A stretch of 32,902 nt of DNA from Geosiphon pyriformis uo1 (Eukaryota; Fungi; Glomeromycota): NCBI GenBank assembly GCA_016748015.1, contig JAAOMT010000176.1:462705-495606 (forward strand), given 5' to 3'. The translations under genes were made by a program, and so were the position numbers. The notes beneath the pieces were generated by a model. That model was not told where the DNA came from. It did not search any database and saw only the letters and a program-made list of their open reading frames with translations. The stretch's first letter is position 1. Each line of letters starts with the position of its first letter. Of the stretch, positions 8,635-32,385 are shown in pieces.

Positions 8635-11600
8635 ATGATTTGATCTGAAAAATAGCTACCTGTAATATTCGGGATATCAATGTCCCTACCAAGTAGAAGA
8701 ACGTTGTTTGTTGGCATAAAAAATCTGGTAATATGATTTCTATTATTATGGAAACAAAATTAAGATTTAACATTAGGCCATAGATAGCCAATAGGTTTAA
8801 TGGAGTAAGAATATTCTCAACAGACTTGGATAAAGGCTTTTTTGGTGCTGAAGTAGCAATAATCATAATCTGGCTTGTCATGTGTGCAAAATTGAGGAAA
8901 TTCCAGGTTGGGTTATTCTGGTGTGGTTTTTGTTCAAAGACAAGCTTTCAGTTTCGATTTTGGGTCTATATGCTAGTGCTTCAGCTGGAGCTAGATTTAG
9001 TCAAGCTCTGGAGATTAATGCATTTATTGCTAAGACTGTCAACTCTAGTACTTTCTTGGTTATTGGTGGGAATTTCAATGAGAATAGTTCAAGAAGAAGT
9101 GTGTTTCAGGTTCTGTTCAGATTTGGGTTTGGTTAACTCACTCAGTAGATCTTTTTTGGTTAAGGCTCCCACATGAAGCAATTCTAGAGAGGTTGAGAAG
9201 ACCATAAACTTTGTTTTTGTTAGTACAAGTTTGGCTTCCGCAGTTGCCAGACATGCTGTTAGTTCTGCTTCAGAATTTTTTGAGTTTGATCATAAGATGG
9301 TCTTGATCTTAGTTGGTTTGGGTGGTCTTGTGGATGTCAATTTGAACAGCTTGTGTAAGCAGGCCAACAGGAACAAATAGAAGTTCAAAATTAAGTCAGC
9401 TAGTAATGATCAATGGTTGCAATTCAGGGAGTGTTCTTCTAGTGAATTTCAGTTAAGATCTGTGGACTTTGATATCGCAAAAAAAGATAATAATTTAGAT
9501 AAGATGTGAGATATTCTTAGAGAGGTAATAGTTTGCTCTGCTGATTGAGTGTTTTTTAAGTTCTGGTTTAATGATTTTGAATGTTCAAGGAATAAGGTTT
9601 TTTCAAAGTTCTTTAAGCTGAAATTATTAATCTCCAAGCTGGTAAAGGATCTGAGCTTGCATTGAAATCTAGTGGCTAACCGCTTTGTTGACACTTGATC
9701 TGTTGTTGATTTTGAGGAAGCCTCCAAATTTCGTACCATGGTTGATAATGGTACTGGTCGTGATGCAATTCTTAGTCATTTGTTGAATGTCAGAAAAAGA
9801 TACTGTAAGTCCAAGTATTTTAAATCCAGAAACACCAGGGATGCTGCTATTAGAAAAGCAGTTAACAAGCACATGGAAAATTTTTGTACTAACAAGGGCT
9901 GTATGATTAAAAGCATTTTGGAATGGTCTTTTTGTAAGGTGGTCCTCAACCATTTGGTGGTTAACAATGATTTAGTTTTGGAGCCTAGTGAAGTTAAATC
10001 TGTAGTTGACACTATTATGGAAGGTTAGACAAGAAAGTGCACAATCCCTGATGTTCTGTCTGCTTGCTGAACTGCCCAATATGCTCCTCTGAATTATGTT
10101 GATGATAGTGCTTTCTCAAAAGTTATGTGCAATATAGGGTCTAATGAATTTCTTCAAGTGGTCAAGTGTTTGTCTGATGATAAGGCTGCTGGTTTGTCTG
10201 GCATTCCTAATGAGCTTTGAAAACATGATAATGCATGGGTTTTGGGTGGTTTGCTGGATATTCTTAATGTGTGTTTGGTATTAGGTGCAGTGCCTATTCA
10301 TTGGAGATGCACATAGGTGTCTATGATTCCAAAACCATATGATTGAAAGGGGACTCTCACAAACACCAGACCAATTGCTTTGGTTGAAACATCCCAGAAA
10401 ATATTGTTTAAGATATTGTCTAACAAGATCTCTGTGGCTTGTAGTAGGTTTGATGTTTTGCAAAGTAACAATTTCTTGGTTTTGAAAAATACATCCACAC
10501 AAACTCTAATTTTTGCTATTGGTTCAATTGTTAAAGACACTTTAAAGAAGAATAAGGAGCTGTGGCTGGTGCTTCAGGATATGTGAAAGGTATATGATTC
10601 TGTTGGGTGGTTTTATCTGCATAATAGTCTGGCTAAGATCAAAATGTGTTCCTGTTTTATTAAGTTTTTTGGCGGCCTACACAATAGCAGATTCAATCAG
10701 GTCATGACTGACTTTGGATTTACAGATGGTTATGTTGTTCACAATAATCTAGATTAAAGAGAAGTTTTCTTGTCTTTGTTGTAGAGAATTTTTTATGATC
10801 CTTTGTTCTACAAAATCAAGCATTGTGGTGATTTATTTGGGTATAAGTTGGATTCAAAAATTTTTTACTAAATCTGGCAAGCCAGATTCTAGAGGTGGCT
10901 TGACATTTTTTCTGGCTGCTAGGGCTTTTGTAGATAACACAATATGGATTGGAAACAGTATAATTGCTACTCAAAATATTTTGGATATAGCAAGTGAGTT
11001 TTTTGGAATCAATGACATCTCTATCAACACAGATAAGACAGTCGCCATACTCATCAACATGAGAGTGGAGAATCTTTAGTTGTTTATTAGTGGAGCTGCC
11101 ATTTCAATAGCAAAAAGAAAGGAACCACACAGATACTTGAGCATCTTTTTGTCTACAGATGGTTTTTCTGTACCCAGTCTTGCCAAAGCGCACTTAGATG
11201 TTTGGTTTTTTACCAATCTAATATTGAGGAAGGCTATTTTAGACAAGCAATTTTTGTATCTGATGTCTGCTGTGCTTCAGCCCATTGTTAGTTACAAGAT
11301 CCAATTCAGCTATGTTTCAGCATGTATGTGTGAGAAATGGAATGGATTGCTCAGAAAAAAGCTGAAAATTAAGACCAGCTTACCTAAAAATTTCTCTAAT
11401 GAGGGTTTATATTATCCTAAGATGTATGGTCTCAAATTTTTTGGCCAATTGCAGGCCAAAAATTTATTAGCCAGTGTGATTGGGTTTGCCAACTCTGGTG
11501 GCGTCCTCGGCAAGTTGTTTGAGCACAGAGCCATGGACCTACAGGCCATCAGCTGGATGCCTCAGCAATCCCTTAGTTTTCTAGTTAAATTGTCTGTTAA

Positions 11601-12471
11601 TCCAATCAATTGCTTTCTGGCTGGCATGAACATGCTTGCATCATGTAGGTCTTTATTGGTCAATAATATTCCTAATGTTTTCTGGTCTGGTGTCAGTGTT
11701 TCTGTTGCTGATGTTTTGAACATGATGTAATACTTAAGCATGGTTGCCTCTTTAAGAAAATTCGGGATTGTGTTCACAAATCAGCTTCTAAATTATAATG
11801 GCATGTGCTTTACTTGGAGCACTTTTTGCCAATAGAAAAGACTGGATCCCAGAGATTGGGTTTCTGGTTGGTTCATCTCTTTAGTCTTGTTCATTTCTAG
11901 TAGTGGTTTAACCGGTGTTGGTGCTTTGGTCCACCATTCCATTTTAGACGTACACTTATGTGATTTTGGTTTTGCTAATAGTTGTCTTGTTGAAAATAAG
12001 CCTGGTGTTGTAAGTATATACACAGATAAGTCAGTCAAAAGTTTGGGTTCTGTAGGTGCTTGTGGTGGTGTTACTGCTTACTTTTCAGATGTTGACTTAA
12101 GTATAGATATTAGAATATACAGCTTGCTTTTTTTGACTCTGGTGGAACTTCAGGCCATCACTCTTGCTTTGAAATGCATTCCAGCTTCTAGCTCAGTTAT
12201 GTTGTTCACAAATAGCCAGGCTTTCTTGAATGTGTGTGTTTTGTTGGTTAATTCTGTTGGTTCCAATTTTTGTGATAAATGCTGAATTGAAAAGAAACAC
12301 ATTTGTACCACTATTGTTTCTAAGAGACTTTCAGTTTGTTGGAATAAAGTCAAGAACCACTTTGGGGTGATTGGTAATGAGCATACTGACTTTTTTGTTG
12401 ACACTGCCACTAAGTCTAAGTTCGTGCTACTAGTCAGTATGGTGTGTCAATTTATTGCTATGGAAAGCCAA
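8631..12471 (+). pseudogene. LINE B ORF2: apurinic endonuclease, reverse transcriptase and RNase H, disrupted
   Basis: APE motifs IATCNIR..ETKL, GGNFNE, FDH. RT motifs IPKP..TNTRPIALVET, LVLQDM*KVYDSV, AFVDNTIW (from FVDD). RNase H motifs IYTDKS, ELQAI, LFTNSQ, KVKNHFGVIGNEHTD. Confidence 0.92.
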
Positions 12472-13450
12472 TGTTACTGGAGGTTTTTGGTCTCTTTCCT
12501 AAATGTTGTTGATGTCTGTTTGCTATGAATTCACGTTTTTTGGATGTGGTTGAACCTCCAGTAACTGAATTTATCTTCAAATTATTTTCTATAATTTGAA
12601 CTGCTGGGCTTATAAATGGAATGGCCAATTCTTTACCAGTTATTTGTTGTAATTACGTTGTAGTGAATGTCAACTCTTTCCCAGGAATTGCTCATCTGAA
12701 AGCTCACTAAAAATGTGTAGTTACTTTGATGTGAAAGTCAACTCTTTTACAAGAATCTTGTCTGTAGGCTACCCTAATGATGGTAATAAGAAAAGAAAAG
12801 AAAAATAAGAGAAAATGTAAAAAAAATAGAATTTTATTAAGGGAAACGTTTTCTATCTAGGCTTGGAGTTACTAACAGTTTATTGAAATTGGTAGCTAAT
12901 CAATTTCAAAACGTTAGTTGGGTTTTGGGGATTTTCCAAGTACAATAATTAACAAATTTGGTTTTTCAAATTATTTGATATTTATTTCTTTTTGTGTGTA
13001 TAAGAATGGTTCTAAGTAATAAATCTAAAGTAAGATACATTTTCTCAAAGAGAGAAGCTTTTCTTTTATACAACTTGTCATAACACTATTCTATAAACTT
13101 GAACTTTGCTCTTTTCTACAATTTTGCTAAACTAAAGATATATTTCAGTGAACTACAAGTTATTTCTGCGAACTATTAGATATTTTGGTAAACTATCAAT
13201 TATTTTGGCAAATTTCTACAAATTTTGGCAAACTTTTGAATGTTACATATTTTGGGGTATTGCATGATTGATCATCGCACTTAGGTTACATTTGTGTTAT
13301 GTACAAATTGGGTTATTAATTAAATGATAATTTCGGACATTTTGCTAATGTAATAAGTGATAATTTGAAATGATAATATATGCTAATTAATGATAAGATT
13401 TATAAGAATAATTTCATGCTAAACAATATCTCTAATTTTGTCTGATAACA
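12472..13450 (-). repeat. 3' LTR of outer element (979 bp)
   Basis: Direct repeat of 31276-32255. TGTTAC...TAACA termini. Adjacent to the PPT. Confidence 0.96.
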
Positions 13451-14138
13451 TAACCTCCTCCTCAAGACTGAGCTCCGTTGAAGTCCAAATACTGTCTATA
13501 ATTTCCAGATAATAATCCAAAATTATTGAAGAAATTTGGTCTGAAAATTGTTGAAATTTCAGTTCTGTGAGCTTTCCAATATATTGAATTTTCAAAGGCT
13601 GTAAAATTGGGTTTTGTAGGACGTTTTCACAGGTGTGGAATAGATCATAAAGTCTAAGAGCAGCTTTTAGTTTATAACAACTGTTTGTAGGTCCAGCTGT
13701 TGTCTTGAATTCATTGTGGAGTTGTTTCCGAATAGCTTCTTTTGTGAAGTTTGCTGCTGTAAGCTCTTGTTTTTGTTTATGAAGTGTTTTTCCAATGTAG
13801 AAATATCTATATATTGGAGTATAGTCATAGTTTTCTTCATTAAGACACAGTTGAAGTTTTTGTTGAATAGTAGTATTTGGTGGAATACTAATAGGAGTGA
13901 GCATTAAGTTTTCTCTTAAAGCAAGCTTTAAAAGTTCTGGCAGGTGAATTCCAGAATAACTTCTTGTGTTCTTTTTATATGGGTGATATTTTCGTGAATT
14001 TGGGGCTAAATTTGTGACTACTTTTGTTTGGGTATAATTAATATAGTTTCCAGTAACAGTAATAAATAATTCAGGTATTGTTTTTAAAGCTAACATTAGT
14101 TTTTGGGATAATTGTTGAATGTTTTGAGGAATAGTCAT
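13419..14138 (-). CDS. Accessory ORF3 of the gypsy element, 239 aa, unknown function
   Basis: Intact ATG-to-stop ORF between integrase and the 3' LTR. Same 720-nt length as its homologue at 29577-30296. Reads through the PPT and stops 32 nt inside the LTR. Confidence 0.75.
   Translation of the reverse strand: MTIPQNIQQLSQKLMLALKTIPELFITVTGNYINYTQTKVVTNLAPNSRKYHPYKKNTRSYSGIHLPELLKLALRENLMLTPISIPPNTTIQQKLQLCLNEENYDYTPIYRYFYIGKTLHKQKQELTAANFTKEAIRKQLHNEFKTTAGPTNSCYKLKAALRLYDLFHTCENVLQNPILQPLKIQYIGKLTELKFQQFSDQISSIILDYYLEIIDSIWTSTELSLEEEVMLSDKIRDIV
13454..13463 (-). other. Polypurine tract of outer element
   Basis: GAGGAGGAGG followed by TTA, immediately before the 3' LTR on the minus strand. 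Confidence 0.85.
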
Positions 14139-14266
14139 TATAAGAGATTTGAAAATAAAAGAAAATTATTTTTGGTGTATGGGTTTTTATGTTATTTTTG
14201 CTTTTGTTTTGTTTTTGTGAGATTGTTCCTAAATTATAAGAAGATAACTATAATAATAAATTTAAA

Positions 14267-15651
14267 TTAAGTGTTCAAGTTGGGAGGTTGTTCAATGACA
14301 ACTATTGGTTCTAAATTCCGGGGAATATCTTCGGGATTGATTAAAAAGGAATGTGTGCCAATTTGTGGAATTAATAGTTCAGGATTGTTTCTGGAATTAT
14401 AGTGTTTTAAACAATCTCCATGTGCAACTTTTGCTAGGATTTTGTCATCAAGTCTTAGCTTGTATGATCCGTTGCTTAGGACTTCATGAATAAAGAATAG
14501 TCCATCCCATTTATTTTCAAATTTTTCACTCCATTGTTTTTTAGCTTTAGTTCTGTGTAAGAGAACTTTGTTTCCGATTTTAAATTCATTGGTAACTAGA
14601 GGCAATTTGTCATCATGTCGTTTTTTTTGTTAAGCTTGGGAGTGTTTAATATAGGTGGCTGCTATTTATCATTTTCCTTCCAATGTGCTAAGCAGAGTGT
14701 AGACTCTTTGTTGTAGTGTTTCCTGAAAATTGTTTTTATCAATTGGTTGTGCTGGGTATGTTTCCACTATGAAACTAATTGGTAATATTGCTGTTCTTCC
14801 ATAAGTTAAATTAAATGATGTGTGTTTTGTGGTATCTTGTTTTAGTGTTCTATATGCTAGTAACACTGATGGAATAAAGAGATTCCATTTTTGCTCAAAA
14901 TTGGTTGAGACTTTGGCTAATAATTCACACAATGTTCTGTTGAAACATTCTACAAGTCCATTTGTTTGTGGATGATAGGGCAAAGATAATGATCTCTTGA
15001 CATTAAATTGTTCACAAATTTTCTGGATTAAATTGTTCATGAAATATGTTCCTTGATTAGATAAAAGTTCTATTGGGCATTTATGTCTACAAATAATATC
15101 TTTGTAGATGAAGTTTGCTATTGATTTTGCATCTGCTCATTGAATGGCTCTGGCTTCAGACCATTTGGTGAGATAGTTTACTGCTACTGCAATATAACGG
15201 TTTCCTTGGTTTGTAATAGGGAGTGGTCTGACTAAATTAATACCAACTCAATCAAAAGACTGTCTAACTTTAATTGAGTTTAAAAATTCTGTAGGGCGAG
15301 TTCTTCTTCTTCTTTGACAATTATCACAAGACTTAATATATTCATGAATGTCTTTTCTCATTTGAGGCCAAAAATAATATTCTAGTGTTCTTTGGGTGGT
15401 GCTGTTTTTTTCTAGGTGTGCTGATAAAGAGTCTGAGTACATGTTATATAAAATGGTTTTTTTTTATGTTCTTGTATTAATCTAAGTGGACTGTTTAGAT
15501 TTCTTAAGTTTTGATAATAAATAATGTTGTTGTGTAAGAAGTATTGTTTGGGTTGTTGTTGTAACTGACGTTTTTCATCTAGGGACCAATCTGTTGGGAT
15601 TGTTAATGTCTCCAGATATTGTTTAAGATTGTTGTGGTTTTCAGGGTTCAT
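14267..15651 (-). pseudogene. Integrase of outer element (separate ORF), with stops and one frameshift
   Basis: HHCC remnant (SAHL...CDNC), core motifs YHPQTNGLVE and LLAYRT, GPY/F-like WDGLFFIHEV. Has its own ATG (MNPEN). Confidence 0.92.
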
Positions 15652-15691
15652 TGTTTGTTGTTTTGTTGCTGTTAATTCAAATGAGTATTGG

Positions 15692-18600
15692 TTAATCTTG
15701 CCTCATTCTTAAGAGACAATCAACGTTGGTGTGAAGTTTTTCTGATTTGTGGTGTACAATGTATTGGTAGTTGGCTAAAAATCCTGTCTATTAGGTTTGT
15801 TTTGCGTTCAATTGGGTGTTTTTGTTCTGAAGCCATTTGAGTCCAATATTATCAGTGATAATATCGAATTCTTTAGGCCTGAGATAAAAATTGAAGTGGT
15901 GTAGGGCCCAGATTACAGCTGCTGTTTCTAGTTCTGTGACAGGGTAGTTTTTCTCGGCTGGTTTTAATGTTCTGTTAGCATAAGTGATTACTTGCTCATT
16001 TCCGTTATCATCTAATTGTGATAGGATGGCACCAAAAGCAGTATAAAAAGCATTTGTAGCTAGTTGAAATTGGTTACTGAAGTCTGAGTAGGTGAGAATT
16101 GGAGCTGTTGTCAGCTTTTCCTTGAGAATTTCAAAAGCTTTTTGGTGTTCTTCTGTCTATTTGTATTTGATGTTTTTAATAGTGAGCTGGTTGAGGGGTT
16201 TTGCAATTTCTGAGAATCCTTTGATGAATTTTCGGTAATAAGAGACTAATTTAATAAATCCTCTCAATTCTGTGGTATTTTGTGGAGTTTTGAAGTTCTT
16301 GACAGTGCTGATTTTTCTGGGGTCTGGTTTAATTCCATCTTTGCTTACAATGTGGCCAAGAAAAGCCAAACTCGTTTTTCCGAAGTAGCATTTTTCGATG
16401 TTCAGTTTCAATTCTGCTTTCCGTAATCATTGAAAAACTTCTCACAGATGTTTTAAGTGTAATTCAAAAGATGGTAAATAAACATCAGTATCATTCAGAT
16501 AAACAACTACTGATTTTCAAAGGAGGCTTTTGTAAACAACATTCATGAGTCTTTGGAATGTTGCTGGTGCATTGCATAATCCAAAAAACATTACGTTGAA
16601 CTTGTAATTTCCTCCTTGAGTGGTGAATGCTGTTTTGGGGTGATCTTTGGGATCCATGGCAACTTGCCAGTATCTACTTTCTAAATCTAATGTCAAAAAG
16701 TATTTGGATTTTCCAAGGGCATTCAACATATCATCAATTCAGGGAAGGGGGTAGGCATCTCCAATAGTGACACTGTTGAGTTGTTGATAATCAACACAAA
16801 ATTATATCTTTCCATTTTTCTTTTTAACTAAGACTACAAGTAAGGTTTATGGACTCATTGATGGTTGAATAAGCCCATTGTTGAGCATCCATTGTACTTT
16901 TTCGTGGATAAATTGGTGACTTTTTGGAGCAACTCAATAGGCTTGTTGTCATCTTGGTTTGGCATCTCCTGTATAGATTTGGTGTTGAACCAAATCGGTT
17001 CTTTCTAAGTCATTGTTGTTTTCAGCAAAGATATCAGAAAATTCTGCAATTAGCTCTTTAAGCTGGTTTTGTTGTTATGATTCAAATTGTCCCATGTTGA
17101 TTCGAGATAGTTTTTCTATAACAACATGGTAGTTTTCAGAGCTGGTGTTTGGGTTGATTTTTGGTAATAAATGTCCAATAATTTCAGAGAAATCGGGGAT
17201 TGTTTGGGGTAATTCTTATTAAAAGATATTACTGTGAATAACTCCAATTTCTAAGTTATTTAATAAAACTATGAGGAAATTGTTGGGATTGTAAAAAGTA
17301 ACTCGGATTTTTTTTGTTTCTTCTGGAATATAAATGTTTGGGATCAAGATATTATATTCCAAGCAGATTTGTTCATTGGACTCAAAAATTTGTTGTGTGG
17401 TTGTTGGCTTTTCACAAGTGTAAATTTCAGGGTGTTCTCCAAAGAGTGAAATAGTAATTGGTTGTGGAAGTTGTAAAATCTGGTGAGATTCTTTTTGTTT
17501 GTTGAGGGCTATGTTTACTGAAATTGTGAATTGTCCAGTTGAACCAAAACCTTGGGTTCCTCTTTCATTTTTTCCCAATAGTTCTCTTTGATTAACTAAT
17601 TGTAAACCCGAAATGTTGATTAAAAGTAAATAAATGGCTTGCACAATTTTCTTGGCATGTTCAATCTTAAACGGCTTGTCAGTTTTGTTTTGGAGTATTA
17701 CTGTTATGTCATCAGTATATCCAGCATCGATTATTCCTCTTCTGACATTGATTTCTTTGCTTGCCAGAGAGAACCGGGAGGCAATTTGAACCATTGCTCC
17801 TGGCAGGATTTTGAGAGCAATTTTGAGATTGATTTTTGTGAGAGATTTGGGTTTGAGAATAAGAGTATCCTTGTCTGGATATCTTAGGTCATATCCAGCA
17901 TCAATTTCATGTGTTTTTTTGGGTTTTATTTCTTGTTTATTGTTGTTGAAGTATTTGAGTTGTAAGACAGGCTGGTTTTTAATGAGATAGATGAGTGTTG
18001 CTTCAATTTCTTCTGTTGCTTCAGGTTCTCCAAATTCAATTTTATTCTCATCATTTTTACTGGGCAGAGGAATGCTAAGAGCATAGCATTCAGGACACCA
18101 CTGTTCATCACAAAGCATAATGCATTCTTCACATAGCCTAATGTTCATTTGCTCTAATCATTGAATTTGAGCTTCTTGGGTTGGGTAGGTATGACTTGCA
18201 ATTTGGTGGTAGACTTCTACTTCATCTTCATAATTGAATCTAGCTAATTCTATGATGTATTCAATGTATTCTGCTTCCTTCATTTGATGGACATCTTCTT
18301 TGGTAGCTCCATTAATTAATGCCATTGCTAGGTCGAAAATCATCTTAGCATCATGGGGGTAGTGATAAAGTTTGTTGAAAGCACTGTTATATGCCACATT
18401 AAAGGGTGTTCCTCTTTTTTTTTTTTCTGAAATTGATAAAGCATATTGGCAGGTCTGATCACAGACTCTTCTTCTCATTGCTACATCAATCCAATTACAT
18501 TCTTCTGGTAGCATATCTCCACAAGTCAAACAAAGAGTGTTGTTCTATTTTCTGCTTCTTTTTATTAGGTGGCTCTATCATTCTTTGTGACAAGCCTTGT

Positions 18601-21365
18601 AGTAATAACAAGTATGATTTTCATATTCTTCTTCAGGTAAAATGCAGGCTCCCATTGAAGAGAGTTTTTTGTGGCAGTCCTTGCATTTAAGTGGAATGTA
18701 GGGGCATTGTTTTTGTGATTCTGGTTTGAATAGGAGACATTCCATCTGGTTGTCACTGGTTCTTTTGTTTCAAGAGAATTATTTGTTGAAAAGTACTGTT
18801 GTTCAGTTTCATTGGCCCAATTAGAGGTTGATCCAAGTACCATAAATGTTTCAATAATGGGCTTTTTTTCTTCCAGTTCGAATTCAAAAGCCGGGGCTTT
18901 TTCGGAGTGTTTGTTGAATGTACCACAAGTAGCAGGTATTCGGGCGTGTTGTTCTTGGTAGGAGATTGTTAACTCTTGTGTTTCCCAATTCAGATTAGTA
19001 TTTGCTTTTTGAAGCCAATTATTTCTGATGAAAGCTTGATACTGGGGCGCATCCATTACAAGAACTTTGACTGGAATGGTGATTCCATTAAGAATGAATG
19101 GAAAATTGTCAATTTCTCCTACTGGAGTTTTTTTCATGCCATTAGCAATAACAATTACTGTTTGAGCTGGTTGGTCGATATTTCTCTTTAACTGTTGCAT
19201 TAACTGGTAGGTGATGATGCTTCTAGTGGATCTACTGTTTAGGATCAAGTGAATTGCCTTTCCTTCGACTTCTGCTTTAGTGTATATAGTAGTAATTGCT
19301 TTTTGTTCATTGGCGGCTGTATTGCTAAGCAGGAATGGTGACTCATTTGCTTCAAACTCAAAAGGGAATATGTCTAAAAGGTTGACGTTTTCAGCAATTC
19401 TAGTTGGTGGGATTGTGATAAAAGTATAGGAAGAATTTTGTTGTCGTGCTGCAGCTCTACTTTCTGAGAGTACAGTATAGTAAAAATTCTGTTCTTCAGG
19501 TATTGTAAGATAGCTAGGTTGAGTATAATAATGGGTGGGTCTTGGCTAAGCTGGATTTTGAAGAACTAATTGGTTGTTTGAATTGATTCTATTGTTGTTT
19601 ACTTGGTATCAGTTTTGTGGTGTAAATTGATTTTGTGGAATTAATCTTTAAGCAGGCACTTGATAATGTTGTGTGGGTGGTTGTTGGTATTGCTGTTGAA
19701 TTGGCTGTGGGGCAGGCTGATAATAGTTACTTTGATATTGGGGTCTTGGTGGATAGTAAGCTGGTAGTGGTGGTTGATAATAAAATTGCTGTAGTGGAGG
19801 GTAACATTGATTACTTTTATTTTGTTGGTCTCATTGTAGCTTTCTGCAATCTCGTTTCCAGTGGCCAGGAATTTCACAGTAATGGCAACTCTGAGACTAA
19901 TTATTAGAGGATGATGTGAAGTTGTTTTGATTCCATCTTTGGAGTGGTTAATATCTTTGGGGTTGCTGTTGTTGTTGGTTGGTGAAATAGTTTTTGACTT
20001 TCTTTGTGAGTTGGTCAATTTTCTCTTCAGCTGCTGAGCTAGTCTCTCCAATGGCTAAGTTCATGAGCTTTGTATGATTGGCTTCTTCTATGGCCATTTC
20101 ATATTTCTTTGCATGCTGAATAGCAGAGTTTAAATCTTCTGGGACATGGGGGCGAACCTTTTTAATCAGTTTATCCTTTAAACCAGTGATAAATTGATCC
20201 AAAATTTAAGCATCAGAATAATAATCATTAGTTTCAAGTTGGCAAATTCATCTGAAAAGTTTGTTGAATTTTCTAATATAAGTCATAATAGATTCAGAGG
20301 ATTCTTGTTTAATATTGTGAAAACGATTTCAAAGTGTGATTGAGGTGTTGTTATTGGTGAATTGTTCTAAGAAGGCAGTTTTGAAAGCTGTTCAGTCATT
20401 AAAAGGGGTGGTCAAGTTTTTGAACTATTTGCCTGCTGTTTCTTTGAGAAAGTAGAGAATTGTTCTTAATATTCTGGCAGCATTCCATCCATTTGCATCT
20501 CCAGCTTTAGTAACTTGGTCAAGCCATTCTTGGAGACTGGTCTCAATATCTTTTCCATTAAATTTGGGAATTTTTGCAATATAAGCTGTCATTTTGTCTT
20601 CTTCCTCGTTATCTGTTAATTCACTTTTTTTTTCGGATTCTACTTTTTCTTCAATAGATTCAGAAATGTTTTCTTTGTTGGCTAATGTTTCAGAGTGTTC
20701 ACTTGTGTTTTCTGCTAAATAGTCAAGAAGATTGATACTAGTCTGAAGGGTTTCTTGTTGTCTGGTGGAACTTCTGGGTGATATATAATCTTTTAGTCTT
20801 GAAAATTGATTTAAAAGTGAATTAGGAGTTTCTGCTTGTGCAAGTAAAGCTGGAAAAGATGTAATAGTAAGTGGGAGTTTTGAACTGGTTTCTTGTTCAG
20901 GTGTTTGTAAGTGTTTGGCAGTTGTTTTTGGTAGTATTGGAGTATTTAGGGTGGTTTTTGAGTATTGTTTCAATTTTTGTTTGCCTTTGTTGCTTGTTTC
21001 TGTCTCTAATTCAAAGTCAAAAGAGTATTTAGACTGTACTAGGTATTTTTCTTCACAATACTCAATAATGTTAAAATTAAGTTCTTGGAAGTAGGTAGCA
21101 AGTGTTTCACTGTTCAGGTCTTCTGTTCTCAATTGTGAATAGTGCACTAAATTATTGTAGAGGTTGCTTCTAACTTCTGAAATGTTGTAGTTTCCAAAAA
21201 AATAATTGTTAATGCAGTTTTCAATGTATTGGTATACTGATTTTTTGACAACTTCAATTCTGTCTGGAATGTTGAATCTTTGCTTGTAGTGTGTATAAAT
21301 TGACTGGTAATACTTTAGAGTTGCTGTGTCTGGTGTGGTTGCCACTTTGAATTTGTTGTTGCTGT
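15692..21365 (-). pseudogene. gag-PR-Cys-rich-dUTPase-RT-RNase H polyprotein of outer element, disrupted
   Basis: Fragments share one frame except for a frameshift near 18725. RT motifs LDLESRYWQV, FGLCNAPATFQR, VYLNDT. Ends LRMRQD*. Confidence 0.93.
17534..17925 (-). other. dUTPase domain in outer pol
   Basis: Motifs DAGYDL, IASRFSLA, GIIDAGYTDDI, KIVQ, ERGTQGFGSTG. Confidence 0.93.
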
Positions 21366-22347
21366 TGTTACCAGACAAAATTAGAGATATTATTTAGCAT
21401 AAAATTATCTTATAATTCCTATTATTAATTAGCATATATTATCGTTTCAAATTATTACTTATTACATTAGCAAAAAACGTCTGAAATTATCATTTAATTA
21501 ATAACCCAAATTGTACACAATACAAATGTAACCTAATTGCGATGATCAATCATGCAATACCCCAAACTATGTAATATTTAAAAGTTCGCCAAAATTTATA
21601 GAAATTCGCCAAAATAATTGATAGTTCACCAAAATATCTAATAGTTCGCAGAAATAACTTGTAGTTTGCCAAAATGTATCTTTAATTCAGCAAAATCGTA
21701 GAAAATAGCAAAGTTCAAGTTCATAGAATAGTGTTATGACAAGTTGTATAAAAGAAGAGCTTCTCTCTTTGAGAAAATGTATTTTACTTTAGATTTATCA
21801 CTTAGAACTATTCTTACACACAAAAAGAAATAAATATCAAATAATTTGAAAAACCAAACTCTTTAAATTATTGCACTTGGAAAATCCTCAAAAACCCAAC
21901 TAACGTTTTAAAATTGATTAGCTACCAATTTCAGTAAACTGTTAGTGACTCCAGGCCTGGATAGAAAATGTTTCCCTTGACAGAATTCTATTTTTTTTAC
22001 ATTTCTTTTATTTTTTTCTTTTCTTTTCTTATTACAATCATTAGGGTAGCCTACAGACAAGATTTCTGTAGAAGAGTTGACTTTTACAGCAAAGTAACTA
22101 TACATTTTAGTGAGCTTCTAGATGAGCAATTCCTAGGAAAGAGTTGACGTTTACTACAACATAACTACATAAAGTAATTGGCACAGAATTGGCCATTCCA
22201 CTTATAAGCCCAGCAATTCAAATTATAGGAGATAATTTGAAGAGAAAGTTCAGTTACTGGAGGTTCAACCACATCCAAAAAACGTGAATTCACAAAAAAC
22301 AGGTATCAACAACATTACAGAAAAGAGACCAAAAACCTCCAGTAATA
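21366..22347 (+). repeat. 5' LTR of inner element
   Basis: Begins TGTTACCAGA and ends CCAGTAATA (CA mutated to TA). Direct repeat of 30265-31246. Confidence 0.96.
21581..21700 (+). promoter_or_regulatory. Array of ~5-6 degenerate palindromic motifs (inferred consensus TTCGCCGAA, ~21-bp spacing) in the LTR, putative U3 enhancer
   Basis: gttcgccaaaa, attcgccaaaa, gttcaccaaaa, gttcgcagaaa, gtttgccaaaa. Different CpG-decay variants occur in the other LTRs. Function is inferred. Confidence 0.5.
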
Positions 22348-22349
22348 TT

Positions 22350-22369
22350 TGGTGCTCTCTCACAGAAAC
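22350..22369 (+). other. Primer-binding site of inner element
   Basis: TGGTGCTC... lies 2 nt after the 5' LTR. TGG complements tRNA CCA. Primer identity not determined. Confidence 0.8.
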
Positions 22370-25300
22370 AACACAGCAAAAACAACTTCAAAGTAGCGAC
22401 CACACCAGACACAACAACTCTAGAGTATTACCAATCAATTTACACCCACTGCAAGCAAAGATTCAACATTCCAAACGGAATTGAAGTTGTCAAGAAATCA
22501 GTATACCAATACATTGAAAACTGCATCAACAATTATCTTTTTAGAAATTACAATATCTTAGAAGTTAGAAGCAACCTTTACAATAATTTAGCACATTATT
22601 CACAGTTGGGAACTGAAGACCTTAACAGTGAAACACTTGCCACTTACTTTCACAAACTTAATTTTAACATTATCAAATACTGTGAAGAAACATATCCAGT
22701 GCAGTCTCAATACACTATTGATTTTGAATTGGAAACAGACACAAGCAACAAAGACAAAAACAAATTAAAGCAATATTCAAGAACCATCCCAAATACTCCA
22801 ACACTACCAAAAACAACTGCCAAACATTTACAAACACCTGAACAAGGAACCAGTTCAAAACTTCCACTTACTATCACACCTTTTTCAGCTTCACTTGCAC
22901 AAGCACAAACACCTAATTCACCCTTGAATTGATTTGCAAGACCAAAAGATTTTATATCACTCAGAAGTCCCATCAGACAACAAGAATTCTTTCAAACTAG
23001 TTCCAATCTCCTTGATTTTCTAGCTGAAAATCAAAGTGAACACTCTGAGACAGCAGCAAATGAAGAAAACAACTCTGAAATAACTGAAGAAGAATCAATA
23101 GACAGTAAAAATGAAGAAGATGAAATGACAACATACATCGCAAAAATCCCTGAATTCAATGAAGAAGATATAGAGACCAGTCTCCAAGAATGGCTCGACC
23201 AAGTTACTAAAGCTGGAGATGCAAATGAATAGAATGCTGCCAGAATGTTAAGAACAATTTCCTACTTTCTCAAAGGAACAGCAGGAGAATAGTTTGAAAA
23301 CTTGGCTGCTCCATTCAATGATTGGAACGCTTTCAAAGCAGCCTTCCTTAAACAGTTCACTAACAATAATACTTCTATCACTCTTCGTAATCATTTTCGA
23401 AATATCAAACAAGAACCCTCCAAATCTGTTATGACTTATATTGGGAAATTCAACAAACTTCTCAAACAAATTCGCCAACTCGAAACAAATGATTATTATT
23501 CTGATGCTCAAATCTTGGATCAATTTATCACTGGTCTAAAAGATAAACTAATTAAAAAAATTTGCCCACATGCGCCAGAAGATTTAAACTCTACCATACA
23601 GCATGCAAAAAGATACGAAATGGCCATAGAAGAGGCCAATCGCACAAAACTTGTAAATTTGGCAATTGGAAAAACCAGCTCAGCAGCTGAGGAAAAAATT
23701 GACCAACTCACAAAAAAAGTTGAAAACTATTTCACCAATCAACAACAACAGCAACCCCAAAGATATCAACCACCCCAAAGACGAAATCAAAATAACTTTG
23801 CACCACTTTCCAATAACCAGCCTTAAAATTGCCATTATTGTGGAATCTCTGGCCACTGGAAAAGAGATTGCAGAAAGCTACAATGAGACCAACAAAATAA
23901 GAGTAATCAATGTTACCCTTTACTACAGCAATCTTATTATCAACTGCCACCATCAGCTTACTATCCACCAAGACCCCAATACCAAAATAACTATTATCAG
24001 CCCGCCTCACAGCCAATCCAACAGCAATACCAACAACCACTCACACAACATTATCAAGTATCTGCTTGAAGACTGCTTACACAGAATCAATTCACACCAC
24101 AAAACCGATACCAAGTAAACAACAATAGAATCAGTTCGAATAACTAATTGGTTCCTCGAAATTCCACTCAACCAAGACCCAACCACTACCACACTCAACC
24201 CAGTTATTTAACAATGCCAAAAGAATTGGATTTTCATCATACTGCACCCTCGGAAGGTAGAGCTGCAGCACAACAACAAAACCCTTTCTATACTCTTACT
24301 ACAATTCCACCAGCCAGAATTACTGAAAACGCTAACCTTTCAGATATATTCCCTTTTGAGTTCAAAGCAAATGAGTCATCATTCCTGCTTAGCAATGCAG
24401 CTGTTAATGAACAAAAAACAATCATAGCTATGTACACTGAAGCAGAAGTCGAAGGAAAGACAATTTACTTGATCCTAGACAGTGGATCTGCTGGAAGCAT
24501 TATCACCTACTAGTTAATGCAACAGTTGAAGAGAAATGTCGACTGACCAGCTCAAACAGTAATCGTTACTGCCGATGGCATGAAAAAAACCCCAGTAGGA
24601 AAAATTGACAATTTTCCATTCACTCTTGATAAAATCACCATTTCAGTTAAAGTTCTTGTAATGGACGTACCTCAGTACCAAGCTCTCATCAGAAATGATT
24701 GGCTTCAAAAAGCCAATACTAATCTGAATTGGGAAACACAAGAGTTAACAATCTTCTACCAAGGACAACACACCCGGGTACCTGCCACTTGTGGTACATT
24801 CAACAAATGCTCTGAAAAAGCCCCAGCTTTTGAATTCGAACTGGAAAAGAAAAAACCCCTTATTGAAACATTCATGGCTCTTGGATCAACATCCAACTGG
24901 GCCAATGAAACAGAACAAGAACATTTTACCCCACACTCTAAACCCGAAACCTCTGGATGGAATATCCCTTACTCAAAACCTGAACCAAGAAAACAATGCC
25001 CCTATATTCCCCTTAAATGTAAGGACTGTCATAAGAAACTATCGTCAATGGGAGCCTGCATTTCACCTGAAGAAGAATATGAAAATCATACTTGTTATTA
25101 CTGCAAGGCTTGCCACAGAAAATAATAGGGCCATCTAATAAAAAGGAGTGGAAAATGGGACAACACCCTTTGTTTGACTTGTGGAGATATACTACTGGAA
25201 GAATGCAATTGGATTGATGTAGCCATGAGAGGAGGGGTTTGCGATCAGACCTGTCAATATGCTTTATCAATTTCAGAAAAAGTAAAAAGAGGAACACCCT

Positions 25301-25770
25301 TTAATGCAGCATACAACAGTGTTCTCAACAAACTTTATCACTACCCCCATGATGCTGAGATGATTTTCAATCTAGCAATAGCATTAATTAATGGAGCTAC
25401 CAAAGAAGATGTTCGCCAAATGAAAAAAGCAGAATATATTGAATACACCATGGAATTAGCTGGATTCGATTATGAAGATGAAGTAGAAGTCTACTACCAA
25501 ATTGCAAGTCACACCTACCCAACTCAAGAAGCTTAAATTCAACGATTAAAGCAAATGAACATTAGGCTATGTGAAGAATGCATTATGCTTTGTGATGAAC
25601 AGTGGTGTCCTGAATGCTATGCTCTTATTATCCCCTTGTCCAGTGAAAATGATGAGAATAAAATTGAATTTGGAGAACCTGAAGCAACAGAAGAAATTGA
25701 AACAACACCTATCTACCTTATCAAAAATCAGCCTGCCTTACAACTTAAATACTTCAACAACAACGGACAA

Positions 25771-26172
25771 GGAATAAAACCCAAAAAAGCACACGAAATT
25801 GATGCTGAATATGACCTAAAATATTCAGGCAAGGATACTCTTGTTCTCAAACCCAAATCTCTCACAAAAATCAACCTCAAAATTGCACTCAAAATCCCGC
25901 CAAGAGCAATGGTTCAAATTACCTCCCAGTCCTCTCTGGCAAGCAAAGAAATCAATGTCAGAGGAGGAATAATCGATGCTGGATATACTGGAGACATTAC
26001 AGTGATGCTTTAAAATGAAACTGACAAACCATTCAAGATTGAACATGCTGAAAAAATTGCCCAAGCTATTTACCTACCCTTAATCAACATTTTGGGTTTG
26101 AAACTAGTCAATTAAAGAGAACAATTAGGAAAAAGTGATAGAGAAACCCAAGATTTTGGTTCAACTGGACGA
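25771..26172 (+). other. dUTPase domain in inner pol
   Basis: AHEIDAEYDL, SQSSLA, GGIIDAGYTGDI, KIAQ, DRETQDFGSTG. Confidence 0.93.
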
Positions 26173-28069
26173 TTCACAGTTCCAGTTAATATAGCTCTTA
26201 ACATACAGAATGAATCCCACCAGATTCTCAGACTTCCACAACCAATTACCATCTCACCCTTTGGAGAACATCCAGAAATTTACACCTGCCCAAAACCAAC
26301 AACCACACAACAAATTTTTGAGTCCAATGAACAAGTCTGTTTGGAACATAATATTTCAATCCCAAACATTTATATTCCAGAAGGAACAAAAAAAGTCCAA
26401 GTTACTTTTTACAATCCCAATAATTACCCCATAATTTTATTAAATAATTTAGAAATTGGAGTTATTCACAGTAATATATTTCAACAAGAATTATCCCAAA
26501 CAGTCCCCAATTTCTCTGAAATTATTGGACATTCAATACCAAAAATCAACCCAAACCCCAGCTCCGAAAACTACCATGTTGCCATGGAAAAACTATCTCG
26601 AATCAACATGGGACAACTTGAACCACAACAACAGACCCAGCTCAAAGAGCTAATTGCAGAATTTGCCGATATCTTCGCTGAAAACAACAATGACTTAGGA
26701 AGAACCAATTTGGTCTAACACCAAATTTATACAGGAGATGCCAAACCAAGAAAACAACAAGCATATCAAATTGCTCTAGAAAGTCACCAATTCATTTGAA
26801 AAGAAGTACAACGAATGCTTAACAATGGGCTCATTCAACCCTCCATGAGTCCTTGGGCTTCACCTGTAGTGCTAGTTAAAAAAAAAAATGGAAAGATCTG
26901 ATTTTGTGTTGACTATCAACAACTCAACAGTGTTACAATTGGAGACACCTACCCTCTTCCCCAGATTAATGACATGTTAGATGCTCTTGGAAAATCCAAA
27001 TACTTTTCAACACTAGATTTAGAAAGTGGTTACTGGCAAGTTGCTATGGATCCCAAAAATCACCCCAAAACAGCATTCACCACTCAAGATGGAAATTACG
27101 AGTTTAATGTAATGCCTTTTGGATTATGCAATGCACCAGCAACATTTCAGAGATTAATAGATGTTGTGTACCAAGGACTTCTTTGGAAATCAGTAGTCGT
27201 TTATCTTGATAATACTGATGTTTATTCTCCATCGTTCGAATTACACTTAAAACACATGTGAGAAGTTTTTCAACGATTACGAAAAGCAAGACTAAAACTC
27301 AATATCAAAAAATGCTACTTTGGAAAAACAAGCCTGGCCTTCCTTGGTCATATTGTTAGTAAAGATGGAATTAAACCAGATCCTAGAAAAATTAGCGTTG
27401 TCAAAAACTTCAAAACTTTTCGAAACACTACAGAATTAAGAGAATTCATAGGATTAGCATCCTACTATCGGAAGTTTATCAAAGGATTTTCAGAAATTGC
27501 AAAACCTCTCAACCAGCTCACCACCAAAAACGTTGAATACAAATAGACTACCGAACACCAAAAAGCTTTTGAAATTCTCAAGAAAAAACTGACAACAGCT
27601 CCAATTCTCACCTACCTGGATTTCAGCAACCAATTTCGACTAGCTATAGATGCTTTATATACTGTCTTTGGTGCCATCTTATCACAACTAGATGACAACG
27701 GAAATGAGCGAGTAATTGCTTATGCTAGCAGAACATTAAAACCAGCTGAAAAAAACTACCCTGCCACAGAACTAGAAACAGCAGCCATAATTTGGGCCCT
27801 ATACTATTTCAATCTTTATCTCAGGCCTAAAGAATTCGATATTATTATTGATAATATTGGACTCAAATGGCTTCAGAACAAAAATACTCAGCTGAATGCA
27901 AAACAAACCTGATGGACAGAATTTCTAGCAAACTATCAATACATAGTACATCACAAACCAAGAAAACTCCACACCAATGTTGACTGTCTCTCCAGAATGA
28001 GACAAGATTAGAAAAACACAAAAAAAAAAACCAACACTCAACTTAACCAACCAAAAGAGCCAACAAACA

Positions 28070-29455
28070 ATGAATTTGGAAAATTACAATGATCTTAAAC
28101 AATATTTGGAAACATTAACAATCCCAACAGATTGGTCTCCAAATGAAAAACATCGACTACAACAACAAGCCAAACAATATTTTTTACACAACGACATTAT
28201 TTATTACCGAAATTTCAAAAACCCAGACAAACCACTCAGATTAATACAAGAACAGGAAAAAGAGACTATATTATACAATATGCACTCAGATCCTTCATCA
28301 GCCCACTTCGGAAAAGACAACACCATCCAAAAAACACTAGAATACTACTTTTGGTCTCGAATGAGAAAAGACATTCACGAATATGTCAAATCTTGTGATA
28401 GTTGTCAAAGAAGAGAAGGAACTTGCTTTACAGAACCTTTAAACCCAATCAAAGTTGGACAGCCTTTTGACAGAGTTGGTATTGATTTAGTCGGACCACT
28501 ACCTATTACAAACCAAGGAAACTGCTACATTGCAGTAGCCATAAACTATCTCACCAAATGGCCTAAAGCCAGAGCCATTCAACAAGCAGATGCGAAATCA
28601 GTAGCAAACTTTATCTACAAAGACATTATTTGTAGACATGGATGCCCAATAGAACTTTTATCTGATTAAGGAACACATTTCGTGAACAATTTAATCTAGG
28701 AAATTTGTGGACGATTTAATGTCAAGAGACCATTATCTTCACCCTACCATCCATAAACAAATGGACTGGTAGAACAGTTCAACAGAACATTGTGTGAATC
28801 ATTAGCCAAAGTTTCAACCAATTTTGAGCAAAAATGAGATCTTTTTATTCCATCAGTATTACTAGCATATAAAACACTAAAACAAAATACCACAAAACAC
28901 ACACCATTTAATTTAACTTATAGAAGGATGGCAATGTTACCAATTAGTTTCACAGTGGAAACATACCCAGCACAACCAATCAATGAAAACAATTTCCAAG
29001 AAACACTTCAACGAAGAGTCTACACTCTGCTTAGCACATTAAAAAGAAAACAACGAATAGCAGCCACTCATATTGAACACTCCCAAGCTCAACAAAAAGA
29101 ACGGCATGATAACAAATTGCCTCTAGTCACCAATGAATTTAAAATTGGAAACAAAGTTCTTTTACACAGAACTAAAGCCGAAAAACAATGAAGTAGAAAA
29201 TTTGAAAATAAATGGGATGAACCATTCTTTATCCATGAAGTTTTAGGCAACAGATCATACAAGCTAAGACTTGATGACAAAATTCTAGCAAAAGTTGCAC
29301 ATGGAAATCGTTTGAAACACTATAATTCCAGAAACAATCCTGAACCATTAATTCCACAAATTGGTACACATTTCCTTTTAATCAATCCCGAAGACATTCT
29401 CTGAAATTTAGAACCAATAGTTGTCATTGAACAGCCTCACAACTTTAACACTTAA
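28070..29455 (+). pseudogene. Integrase of inner element (separate ORF, 461 codons, with stops)
   Basis: HSDPSSAH...CDSC zinc finger; D (GIDLVG), D (LLSD*G), E (NGLVE); WDEPF motif. No chromodomain apparent. Confidence 0.93.
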
Positions 29456-29576
29456 TTTAAATTTATTATTATGGTTATCTTCTTATAATTTAGAAACAAT
29501 CTCACAAAAACAAAACAAAAATAACATAAAAACTCATGCACCAAAAATAATTTTTTTTTATTTCAAATTGCTTATA

Positions 29577-30296
29577 ATAACTATTCCTCAAAACATTCAA
29601 CAATTATCCCAAAAACTAATGTTAGCTTTAAAAACAATACCCGAATTATCCATTACTGTTACTGGAAACCACATTAATTATACCTAAACAGAAGTAGTTA
29701 CAAATTTAGCCCCAAATTCACGAAAATATCACCCGTATAAGAAGAACACAAGAAGTTATACTGGAATTCACCTGCCAGAACTTTTAAAACTTGCTTTAAG
29801 AAAAAATCTAATGCTCACTCCGATTAGTATTCCACCAAATACTACAATTCAACAAAGACTTCAACTGTGTCTCAATGAGGAAAACACTAAATATCCTCCA
29901 ATCTATAGATATTTTCACATTGGAAAAACACTCTATGAACGGAAACTGGAACTTACAACAGTAAATCTCATAAAAGAAGCTATTTAGAAACAACTCCACA
30001 ACAAATTCAAGACAACAGCTAGATCAACAAACAGTCGCTACAGGCTCAGAGCTGCTCTTAGACTTTATGACCTATTTCACATCTGTGAAAACGTATTACA
30101 AAACCCTATTTTTCAACCTTTGAAGATTCAATATATTGGAAAGCTCACAGAACTGAAATTTCAACAATTTTCAGACCAAATTTCTTCAATAATTTTGGAT
30201 TATTATCTGGAAATGACAAATAGTACTTGGACTTCGATGGAGCTCAGTCTTGAGGAGAAGGTTATGTTACCAGACAAAATTAGAGATATTATTTAG
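29577..30296 (+). pseudogene. Accessory ORF3 of inner element (ATG>ATA, internal stops)
   Basis: Collinear with 13419-14138 and of identical length. Confidence 0.8.
30252..30261 (+). other. Polypurine tract of inner element
   Basis: GAGGAGAAGG followed by TTA, before the 3' LTR. Confidence 0.85.
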
Positions 30297-31246
30297 CATA
30301 AAATTATCTTATAATTCCTATCATTAATTAGCATATATTATCGTTTCAAATTATCACTTATTACATTAGCAAAAAACGTCCGAAATTATCATTTAATTAA
30401 TAACCCAAATCGTACACAACACAAATGTAACCTAATTGCGATGATCAATTATGCAATACCTCAAAATATGTAACATTCAAAAGTTTGCCAAAATTTGTAG
30501 AAATTCACTGAAATAATTGATAGTTCACCAAAATATCTAATAGTTCACAGAAATAACTTGTAGTTTACCGAAATGTATCTTTAGTTTAGCAAAATTGTAG
30601 AAAAGAGCAAAGTTCAAGTTTATAGAATAGTGTTATGACAAGTTGTATAAAAGAAGAGCTTCTCTTTTCGAGAAAATGTATCTTACTTTAGATTTATCAC
30701 TTAGAACCATTCTTACACACAAAAAGAAATAAATATCAAATAATTCGAAAAACCAAACTTTTTAAATTATTGCACTTGGAAAATCCTCAAAAACCCAATT
30801 AACGTTTTGAAATTGATTAGCTACCAATTTCAGTAAACTGTTAGTGACTCCAGGCCTGGATAGAAAACGTTTCCCTTAACAAAATTCTATTTTTTTTACA
30901 TTTTTTTTATTTTTTTCTTTTCTTTTCTTATTACAATCATTTGGGTAGCCTACAGACAAGATTTCTGTAGAAGAGTTGACTTTGACAGCAAAGTAACTAT
31001 ACATTTTAGTGAGCTTCCAGACAAGCAATTTTTAGGAAAGAGTTGACGTTTACTACAATGTAACTACATAAAGTAACTGGCACAAAATTGGCCATTCCAC
31101 TCATAAGCCCAGCAATTCAAATTATAGGAGATAATTTGAAGAGAAAGTTCAGTTACTGGAGGTTCAACCACATCCAGAAAACGTGAATTCACAGCAAACA
31201 GGTATCAACAACATTACAGAAAAGAGACCAAAAACCTCCAGTAACA
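30265..31246 (+). repeat. 3' LTR of inner element
   Basis: TGTTACCAGA...TCCAGTAACA. Follows the PPT. Confidence 0.96.
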
Positions 31247-31253
31247 CTGTGTT

Positions 31254-31273
31254 ATTTCTGTAGAAGAGCACCA
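31254..31273 (-). other. Primer-binding site of outer element
   Basis: Minus strand TGGTGCTCTTCTACAGAAAT, 2 nt after the outer 5' LTR. Confidence 0.8.
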
Positions 31274-31275
31274 AA

Positions 31276-32255
31276 TGTTACTGGAGGTTTTTGGTCTCTT
31301 TTCCTAAATGTTGTTGATGTCTGTTTGCTGTGAATTCACGTTTTCTGGATGTGGTTTAACCTCCAGTAACTGAATTTATCTTCAAATTATTTCTTATAAT
31401 TTGAACTGCTGGGCTTATAAGTGGAATAGCCAATTCCTTGCCAGTTACTTTATGTAGTTACATTGTAGTAAATGTCAACTCTTTCCCAGGAATTGCTTAT
31501 CTAGAAGCTCACTAAAAATGTGTAGATACTTTGCTGTGAAAGTCAACTCTTCTACAGAAATCTTGTCTGTAGGCTACCCTAATGATTATAATAAGAAAAT
31601 AAAAGAAAAATAAAAGAAAATGTAAAAGAAATACAATTTTATCAAGGGAAACGTTTTTTATCCAGGCCTGAAGTCACTAACAGTTTACTGAAATTGGTAG
31701 CTAATCAATTTCAAAACGTTAGTTGGGTTTTGGGGATTTTCTAAGTGCAATAATTAAAGAATTTGGTTTTTCAAATTATTTGATATTTATTTCTTTTTGT
31801 GTGTATAGGAATGGTTCTAAGTGATAAATCTAAAGTAAAATACATTTTCTCAAAGAAAGAAGCTCTTTTTTTATACAACTTGTCATAACACTATTCTATG
31901 AACTTGAACTTTGCTCTTTTCTACAATTTTGCTGAACTAAAAATACATTTCGGTGAATTACAAGTTATTTCTGTGAACTATTAAATATTTCGGTAAACTA
32001 TCAATTATTTTGGTGAATTTCTACAAATTTCAGTGAATTTTTGAATGTTACATATTTTGGGGTATTGCATGATTGATCATCGCACTTAGGTTACATTTGT
32101 GTTATGTACAAATTGGGTTATTAATTAAATAATAATTTCGGACATTTTGCTAATGTAATAAGTGATAATTTGAAATGATAATATATGCTAATTAATGATA
32201 AGATTTATAAGGGTAATTTCATGCTAAACAATATCTCTAATTTTGTCTGGTAACA
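31276..32255 (-). repeat. 5' LTR of outer element (980 bp)
   Basis: Direct repeat of 12472-13450. Adjacent to the PBS. Confidence 0.96.
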
Positions 32256-32385
32256 CCGATCTGTTTCTGGAAATGCTCATCAGTTTGTATGGTATCTATT
32301 TGATGCTGTTAATTTTGTTGGCTGGAAGTCCAAGTGTATGGGTGGCATCATTGATTTGAATCTTGTCGAACAATTTAATATGCAT
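32256..32385 (+). pseudogene. Continuation of LINE B ORF2 after the gypsy insertion
   Basis: Frame continues across the TSD: ...FIAMES|RSVSGNAHQFVWYLFDAVNFVGWKSKC. Same GT-rich composition as LINE B. Confidence 0.75.

Follow-up and report, generated by a model that had tools for sequence, protein, structure and literature searches.

A stand-alone integrase frame in a Ty3/gypsy retrotransposon family of Geosiphon pyriformis and its fungal relatives

Long terminal repeat (LTR) retrotransposons normally bring their integrase into the particle as part of Gag-Pol. What is to be made, then, of an element whose integrase stands outside that polyprotein, behind a stop codon and in a reading frame of its own: is it a damaged copy, or a member of a lineage that arranges its genes differently? 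The question is raised by a stretch of 32,902 nucleotides from the fungus Geosiphon pyriformis (assembly GCA_016748015.1, contig JAAOMT010000176.1, positions 462,705 to 495,606; hereafter the window), which holds two full copies, A and B, of one element. Copy B (21366-31246) is a decayed, inactive Ty3/gypsy LTR retrotransposon, complete from LTR to LTR, and likely belongs to a high-copy family of this species. The stand-alone integrase is almost certainly a real trait of a lineage of mycorrhizal-fungal elements.

A preliminary description, made from the letters of the window, had given both full copies the order LTR, primer-binding site (PBS), a single frame of extension, gag, protease, Cys-rich insert, dUTPase, reverse transcriptase (RT) and RNase H ending in a stop, then integrase, a third open reading frame (ORF3), polypurine tract and LTR; Pfam, LTR and open reading frame (ORF) analysis bears this out. 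In a Pfam scan of the frame translation, with X written at stop codons, Retrotrans_gag, zf-CCHC, aspartyl protease, dUTPase, RVT_1 and RNase H fall in a single frame of B, and Integrase_H2C2, rve and SH3_Tf2 in the +1 frame from the ATG at 28070; the SH3_Tf2 match, like one to Ty3_capsid, is below the cut-off. The gag-pol frame of B is closed by the stop at 28009-28011, with the integrase ATG 58 nt later in the +1 frame; in A the integrase ATG lies 40 nt past the RNase H stop, again in +1.

One way to understand the stop and the change of frame is as lesions of a dead master copy. Both copies are indeed dead, as internal stops, broken RT motifs (YLDN in B and YLND in A, as first described) and two 1-nt frameshifts in A make plain. 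Of the 7868 internal bases that can be aligned between them, 1060 differ, mostly by transitions (893), and the long frame of the pair has 40 internal stop positions, 31 private to one copy and 9 shared; this heavy decay, with the nine other stops in common, is what the lesion reading has in its favor. (It had been proposed that the lesions are largely different and that a functional consensus could be rebuilt; that holds for the private stops; the shared ones would not be repaired from these two copies.) CpG is depleted, to an observed/expected ratio of 0.37 in B and 0.23 in A, in line with the CG methylation of transposons reported for Rhizophagus irregularis (bioRxiv 10.1101/2021.03.30.436303). 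The lesion reading is made very improbable indeed by the stop itself, which dozens of relatives about 50% identical, and Rhizophagus proteins as well, have at the identical position.

The relatives come from a search with the RT-RNase H region among proteins of 784-2235 aa, in which the best 120 of 6654 matches were analysed; 24 do not cover the RNase H end and were dropped, leaving 96. Among these, 41 end within 30 residues of the RNase H end point and 34 within 4 residues, and the latter are distributed by RT-RNase H identity: 29 of 34 proteins at 50% or more, 5 of 25 at 48-50%, and none of 37 below 48%. The top match groups with R. irregularis proteins; four R. irregularis models finish at exactly the same point, one of them a 1577-aa single ORF running from gag through protease and RT to RNase H, and the R. 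clarus protein P0165 finishes there too. Since the stop position is common to most relatives of at least 50% identity, Rhizophagus included, it is to be regarded as a trait of the lineage rather than as damage.

Trees agree with this in the main. Among 53 chosen rows, with long branches left out, a branch with support 98/98 unites A and B with 31 further rows that lack integrase in pol and with a single fused row, and leaves 19 fused elements outside; the integrase-in-pol label needs one change on that tree; in a quick tree of 98 rows the corresponding branch has support 89. A metagenome scan gave 81 loci (79 metagenome, 2 viral), of which 68 cover the RNase H end. They are mostly ordinary fused elements; three were placed in the split-integrase lineage, one of these with integrase DNA. 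At that locus, L025, 74 nt separate the RNase H stop from the ATG of an integrase that reads in +2 and does not overlap pol. In contigs of run X1, the integrase ATG and the first two bases of the stop have no alternative letter that reaches 5%; the spacer has length variants of -1 and -6 nt, and there are pieces with 8, 9 and 10 gaps. A subgroup (P0196, P0194, P0211, P0202, P0186 and L016:1922-2750) carries an acidic, Cys/His-rich RNase H tail where the integrase would be.

Two observations pull the other way: support is only 40/19 for the branch by which the fused row, P0204, is excluded, and three R. clarus gene models (P0203, P0210 and P0226) join RNase H to integrase. The latter suggest that a spliced message might fuse RT-RNase H to the integrase start, the split being only apparent. 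These joins, however, drop the conserved RNase H end and occur in near-identical predicted models; moreover, the L025 spacer is devoid of an AG acceptor, and the R. irregularis models end at the stop. Such a fusion is decidedly unlikely, and the separate integrase remains the better account of the junction.

Selection can be judged from the two copies themselves. In the A-versus-B comparison pN/pS is 0.16-0.45 across all 12 regions. When the differences were shuffled within each region (1000 shuffles, CpG context not kept), amino-acid change as low as that observed was found in 0/1000 shuffles for each of extension, gag, Cys-rich insert, RT, RNase H and ORF3, in 1/1000 for the integrase and in 4/1000 for the linker behind the dUTPase. 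Extension, Cys-rich insert, integrase and ORF3 have evolved under purifying selection. The protease (297/1000) and the dUTPase (81/1000) have no significant deficit in these shuffles, which counts on the other side.

Relocated integrases are on record in Ty3/gypsy elements, in REM1 of Chlamydomonas and in Gmr1. The integrase of REM1 is truncated and reversed, and that of Gmr1 lies behind the protease, whereas here it is full, forward and stand-alone, a state that is not among the five set out in PMC2774666; in PMC3248453 integrase is treated as the last part of pol. A literature search, with Repbase, GyDB, subscription journals and supplements outside its range, found no description of a stand-alone integrase in fungal gypsy elements. 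The stand-alone integrase is the new part; dUTPase and cargo as such were already known.

How would such an integrase be made? One perspective, given here slightly less than an even chance, is that ribosomes reinitiate after the gag-pol stop. The element would be copied by the usual LTR route; the protease would cut a Gag-Pol lacking integrase; post-termination 40S subunits would cross the A-rich spacer of 40-74 nt to the integrase ATG, as proposed for ORF2 of LINE-1; the dose of integrase would be decoupled and lowered; and the protein would have to enter particles untethered from Gag. The spacers of both copies contain no ATG and have an A content of 53-64%, and the integrase ATG has A at -3. 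LINE-1 and SART1 offer the analogy of a long upstream ORF whose stop is followed by a further enzyme ORF, led by an AUG of its own: the spacer of LINE-1 is 63 nt, and reinitiation over it was proposed as an unconventional event, whereas SART1 uses an overlapping stop-start. Both are non-LTR elements, and reinitiation was tested there, whereas it is only inferred here (PMC5972666).

A number of points weigh against reinitiation. Junctions with integrase DNA number three, all or most from decayed copies, and the spacer of L025 holds an out-of-frame ATG. Viral termination-reinitiation is reported to tolerate up to about 29 nt between stop and start, and all three spacers (58 nt in B, 40 nt in A, 74 nt in L025) exceed this limit; TGGGA is absent from the 150 nt before the stop in 3/3 junctions; neither the spacing nor the UGGGA motif of coupling by a termination upstream ribosome-binding site (TURBS) is present. 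At L007:1555-1670 a run of A begins directly behind the RNase H stop and gives way to T; it may be a poly(A) tail or an A-rich spacer, and a poly(A) tail would favor separate messages.

Were ribosomes instead to shift by +1 at the RNase H stop, a minor share of Gag-Pol would be extended into integrase, the spacer serving as a translated linker. The integrase of A and that of B are both in +1; their frame is open in the 11 nt that end with the stop codon and in the spacer, and it is kept though the two spacers differ by 18 nt. In L025, however, the integrase is in +2 without overlap; the X1 contigs have 1-nt length variants of the spacer as well as the gapped pieces; A-rich spacers are stop-poor anyway; and the start Met stands at the same place in 3/3 junctions. 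Frameshifting is unlikely, and spacers of 40, 58 and 74 nt, in frames +1, +1 and +2, disfavor both it and TURBS-type coupling.

A further perspective supposes that the integrase and ORF3 are expressed from subgenomic mRNAs, either spliced from the 5' LTR region or internally started, with ORF3 acting as a Rev/CERV-like exporter of unspliced RNA. The env proteins and the Pol of foamy viruses are made from subgenomic messages, and on this scheme the length and frame of the spacer would be unconstrained. A pyrimidine run ending in CAG stands just before the RNase H stop of B, with no variant of 5% or more listed in X1; a branch-like, pyrimidine and TTTAG stretch lies upstream of ORF3 in both copies; and the A run of L007 directly follows the stop. 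ORF3s of LTR elements typically come from spliced messages (PMC5408684), and CERV is a precedent (PMC10309623). Yet the AG before the stop also belongs to a conserved Arg codon of the RNase H end, copy A has TAAG at that place, and the L025 spacer lacks any AG; L007 is one contig, and B carries a genomic A run at the same position; nor does ORF3 match a known RNA exporter in sequence or fold. Subgenomic messages are a serious possibility, held with rather more doubt than hope, and reinitiation is still preferred for the integrase.

Structure and RT make the element a member of Ty3/gypsy (Metaviridae); it is no retrovirus, nor, to judge by its domains, a chromovirus. Like canonical members such as yeast Ty3, it has LTRs (TG...CA), a PBS, a polypurine tract, a short target-site duplication (TSD) of 4 bp and the order gag-protease-RT-RNase H-integrase; unlike them, it has gag and pol in one frame, cargo between protease and RT, a 3' ORF, and an integrase outside the pol frame, where that enzyme usually, though not universally, lies in Ty3/gypsy elements. 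The best PDB match of RT-RNase H is the Ty3 RT (E 3.7e-91), with retroviral-type enzymes below the third listed row, at 7e-37 or weaker. No chromodomain was matched up to E 0.1, the integrase ending about 40 aa after its SH3 module. Neither a retroviral-type RT nor an env gene, which would point to Retroviridae or errantiviruses, is present, and the label 'complex-retrovirus-like' first applied to the family has to be dropped: ORF3 has no hydrophobic segment or furin site, and in its RT the element stands much nearer to Ty3 than to retroviruses. The moss non-chromovirus clade Phygy has 4-bp TSDs with an NCGN preference, which the TCGG/TTGG of A fits and the CTGT of B fits only if decayed; Phygy elements are short, with a polyprotein filling the internal part, unlike copy B (PMC6317226).

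The interval between protease and RT is a variable cargo slot, holding dUTPase plus Cys clusters. Trimeric dUTPases have five conserved motifs, and the domain here, which matches residues 6-129 of the 129 of PF00692 (63 bits, E 2e-17), appears from its sequence to be full-length and to have all five; the alignment of copy A includes the C-terminal GFGST motif and has a single Ser-to-Phe replacement in motif 2. The enzyme would keep uracil out of the cDNA. Counterparts 45-51% identical occupy the same position in 4 of the best 120 relatives. In three relatives (P0201, P0212 and P0220) gag-pol includes a Nudix hydrolase domain, which precedes the protease in both of those scanned; this would be a second nucleotide-cleaning cargo of the lineage.

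A dUTPase between protease and RT is known from fungal gypsy elements (PMC2864245) and from those of rotifers and planarians (PMC5408684, PMC6431247). PosPlaTy3-5 of Postia has it in that place, as here, and elements of Phanerochaete and Tmt1 of Tuber also carry one in pol; these come from a chromovirus survey and are compared by description only, the present element differing in having no chromodomain match, a large Cys-rich insert and a separate integrase (PMC2864245). Bdelloid rotifer LTR elements combine a dUTPase with a family-specific, non-env ORF3, as here (PMC5408684), and plant eORF elements likewise have extra 3' ORFs, such ORFs being described in 3372 plant Ty3/gypsy elements (PMC6317226); both keep the integrase in pol, and the present ORF3 resembles no Pfam family. 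With dUTPases published in fungal, rotifer and planarian gypsy elements and extra ORFs in so many plant ones, the premise that Ty3/gypsy elements rarely carry cargo does not stand.

The Cys-rich insert is conserved among family copies, and Geosiphon models alone were found to have its large form: of 370 matches, the 120 listed are all gene models of G. pyriformis. In several relatives the corresponding interval holds shorter Cys clusters. There is no Pfam match; the predicted model, with a predicted local distance difference test score (pLDDT) of 47.7 and no PDB match, is too weak for assignment; and the profile found nothing better than E 0.78 among the best 120 RT relatives and the 81 loci.

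The N-terminal extension of gag lacks an AUG, as the preliminary description held: B has no in-frame ATG upstream of the gag Met at 23125, and the corresponding part of A is without ATG in any frame before 20592. Conservation between the two starts near 22393, where A reads AAA GTG G, B has GTA, and a hypermutated third copy ATA. The simplest guess is that the extension starts at this GUG, a candidate near-cognate start; alternatively, the ATG that stands at position 411 of all four LTRs would supply the beginning, by way of a spliced leader. In relatives, 150-300 residues, mostly Met-led, precede the capsid, although the extension itself has no BLAST match among the best 120. As relatives carry a comparable stretch, the extension is to be seen as part of gag, with only the missing AUG being special. 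P0174, P0227, P0186, P0202, P0236, P0210 and P0395 have in common a gag that opens with a His/Cys motif (H..H...C..C) and has, ahead of the capsid, a helical domain; the motif was not seen in the Geosiphon extension.

ORF3 is an open frame of 239 codons in A, from 14138 to 13422 on the minus strand; in B it is interrupted by two stops and has ATA in place of the start codon. Of 201 matches, the 120 listed are all G. pyriformis gene models. A profile search of 1.84 billion representatives gave 35 matches, of which seven were looked up: five are Geosiphon models and two are metagenome proteins at 26-30% identity, both ending in residues that are encoded here by the purine tract and the start of the LTR. 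Given these shared terminal residues, the metagenome homologues likely sit at the same place in related elements. The protein is soluble and mildly basic, with a helical predicted model (pLDDT 59). Its highest 19-residue hydropathy is 1.06, without a hydrophobic segment, and there is no furin R-x-K/R-R site; a fold search with the model gave a best Z of 5.2 and no viral match, and no relative was found in viral contigs. An identity as env was rejected on these grounds. No Pfam family matches, the best being DUF1016_N at E 0.011-0.015 in 4/44 members; a weak FtsQ match was taken as chance. Most likely ORF3 is a soluble regulator from a spliced message, and a role like that of CERV in Cer1 (PMC10309623) may be guessed by analogy.

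Coordinates are collected in the table. B is nested inside A in opposite orientation, 29 bp behind A's 5' LTR, and splits it. The LTRs of B (TGTTAC...GTAACA) are 94.9% alike, with 46 transitions among 51 differing sites; those of A differ at 66/979 sites, and this larger number is in keeping with the greater age of A. The third copy differs from B by C>T or G>A at 894/1402 differences; its decay, far heavier than that of A or B, recalls an effect like repeat-induced point mutation, or extreme deamination.

Table. Features of the window (position 1 is its first letter)
Feature	Position	Strand	Remarks
5' LTR of copy B	21366-22347	+	982 bp; ends in TA
TATAAAA and short ATG-led frame	near 21747; 21777	+	present in all four full LTRs
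PBS-like site TGGTGCTCT	22350-22361	+	TGG 2 nt behind 5' LTR; candidate primer site
AUG-less N-terminal gag extension	22393-23124	+	under purifying selection
gag	23125-23900	+	capsid 23257-23541, single CCHC knuckle 23827-23877; Pfam
Aspartic protease	24439-24708	+	LDSG intact in B, degraded in A; Pfam
Cys-rich insert	24988-25650	+	17 Cys
dUTPase	25780-26169	+	between protease and RT; Pfam
RT and RNase H	26875-27936	+	RT 26875-27357 (YLDN in B), RNase H 27619-27936
gag-pol stop and spacer	28009-28069	+	stop 28009-28011, then 58-nt A-rich, ATG-free spacer
Integrase	28070-29455	+	own ATG-led ORF: HHCC, core, SH3/GPY-F-type module
ORF3	29577-30296	+	about 239 codons; crosses purine tract into 3' LTR
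Polypurine tract of B	30252-30261	+	
3' LTR of copy B	30265-31246	+	982 bp
TSD of B	21362-21365 and 31247-31250		4 bp, CTGT
Copy A, 5' part	31247-32255	-	5' LTR (32255-31276), PBS, first 29 internal bases
Copy A, remainder	12472-21365	-	layout as in B
Copy A, RNase H stop	15694-15692	-	
Copy A, integrase ATG	15651	-	
Copy A, ORF3	14138-13419	-	open
Copy A, 3' LTR	13450-12472	-	
TSD of A	12468-12471 and 32256-32259		TCGG/TTGG; central CpG decayed in one copy
LTR 3' end	1-230	+	another LTR of the same family
ORF1-like stretch	172-1851	-	second of the same LINE-like kind; label read from translations
Third, truncated copy of the family	1981-6548	+	GC 17%
Decayed LINE-like (long interspersed nuclear element) element	6620-12470	+	ORF1-like, RT-like, weak RNase H match; copy A inserted into its end; label read from translations

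Does this family define a distinct lineage, as was suggested at the outset? The split integrase, with its stop in most close relatives including those of R. irregularis and R. clarus, and ORF3 speak for it; the dUTPase and the idea of cargo do not, being known already. The layout recurs in related fungi in part: the RNase H stop is there, the dUTPase is found in 4 of the best 120 relatives, and ORF3 has two distant homologues. The full combination belongs to the family, since the large Cys-rich insert is confined to Geosiphon models and the extension of relatives is Met-led.

LTR sequence makes up 41.2% of the genome of Geosiphon (PMC11952901). Fragments of the family have entered the annotation as 'hypothetical proteins' of the host, the form taken by 240/240 listed matches of the ORF3 and Cys-rich searches, and annotators would take the RNase H stop for damage. 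A wide reading, tentative and rather unlikely to hold as a whole, would be that an old clade in mycorrhizal fungi abandoned the rule of the Pol polyprotein: ribosomes reinitiating on a bicistronic genomic RNA would produce a free integrase, which would enter particles untied to Gag, the Gag of this family would start at GUG, a helical ORF3 of new fold would regulate the messages, and a plan in the style of the complex retroviruses would have been reached independently. An old and successful lineage without integrase borne on Gag-Pol poses two questions: by what route would a ribosome get from a stop to a second long ORF that lies 40-74 nt further on, and how would a free integrase be packaged? 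Intact single-ORF relatives exist in R. irregularis, which can be cultured.

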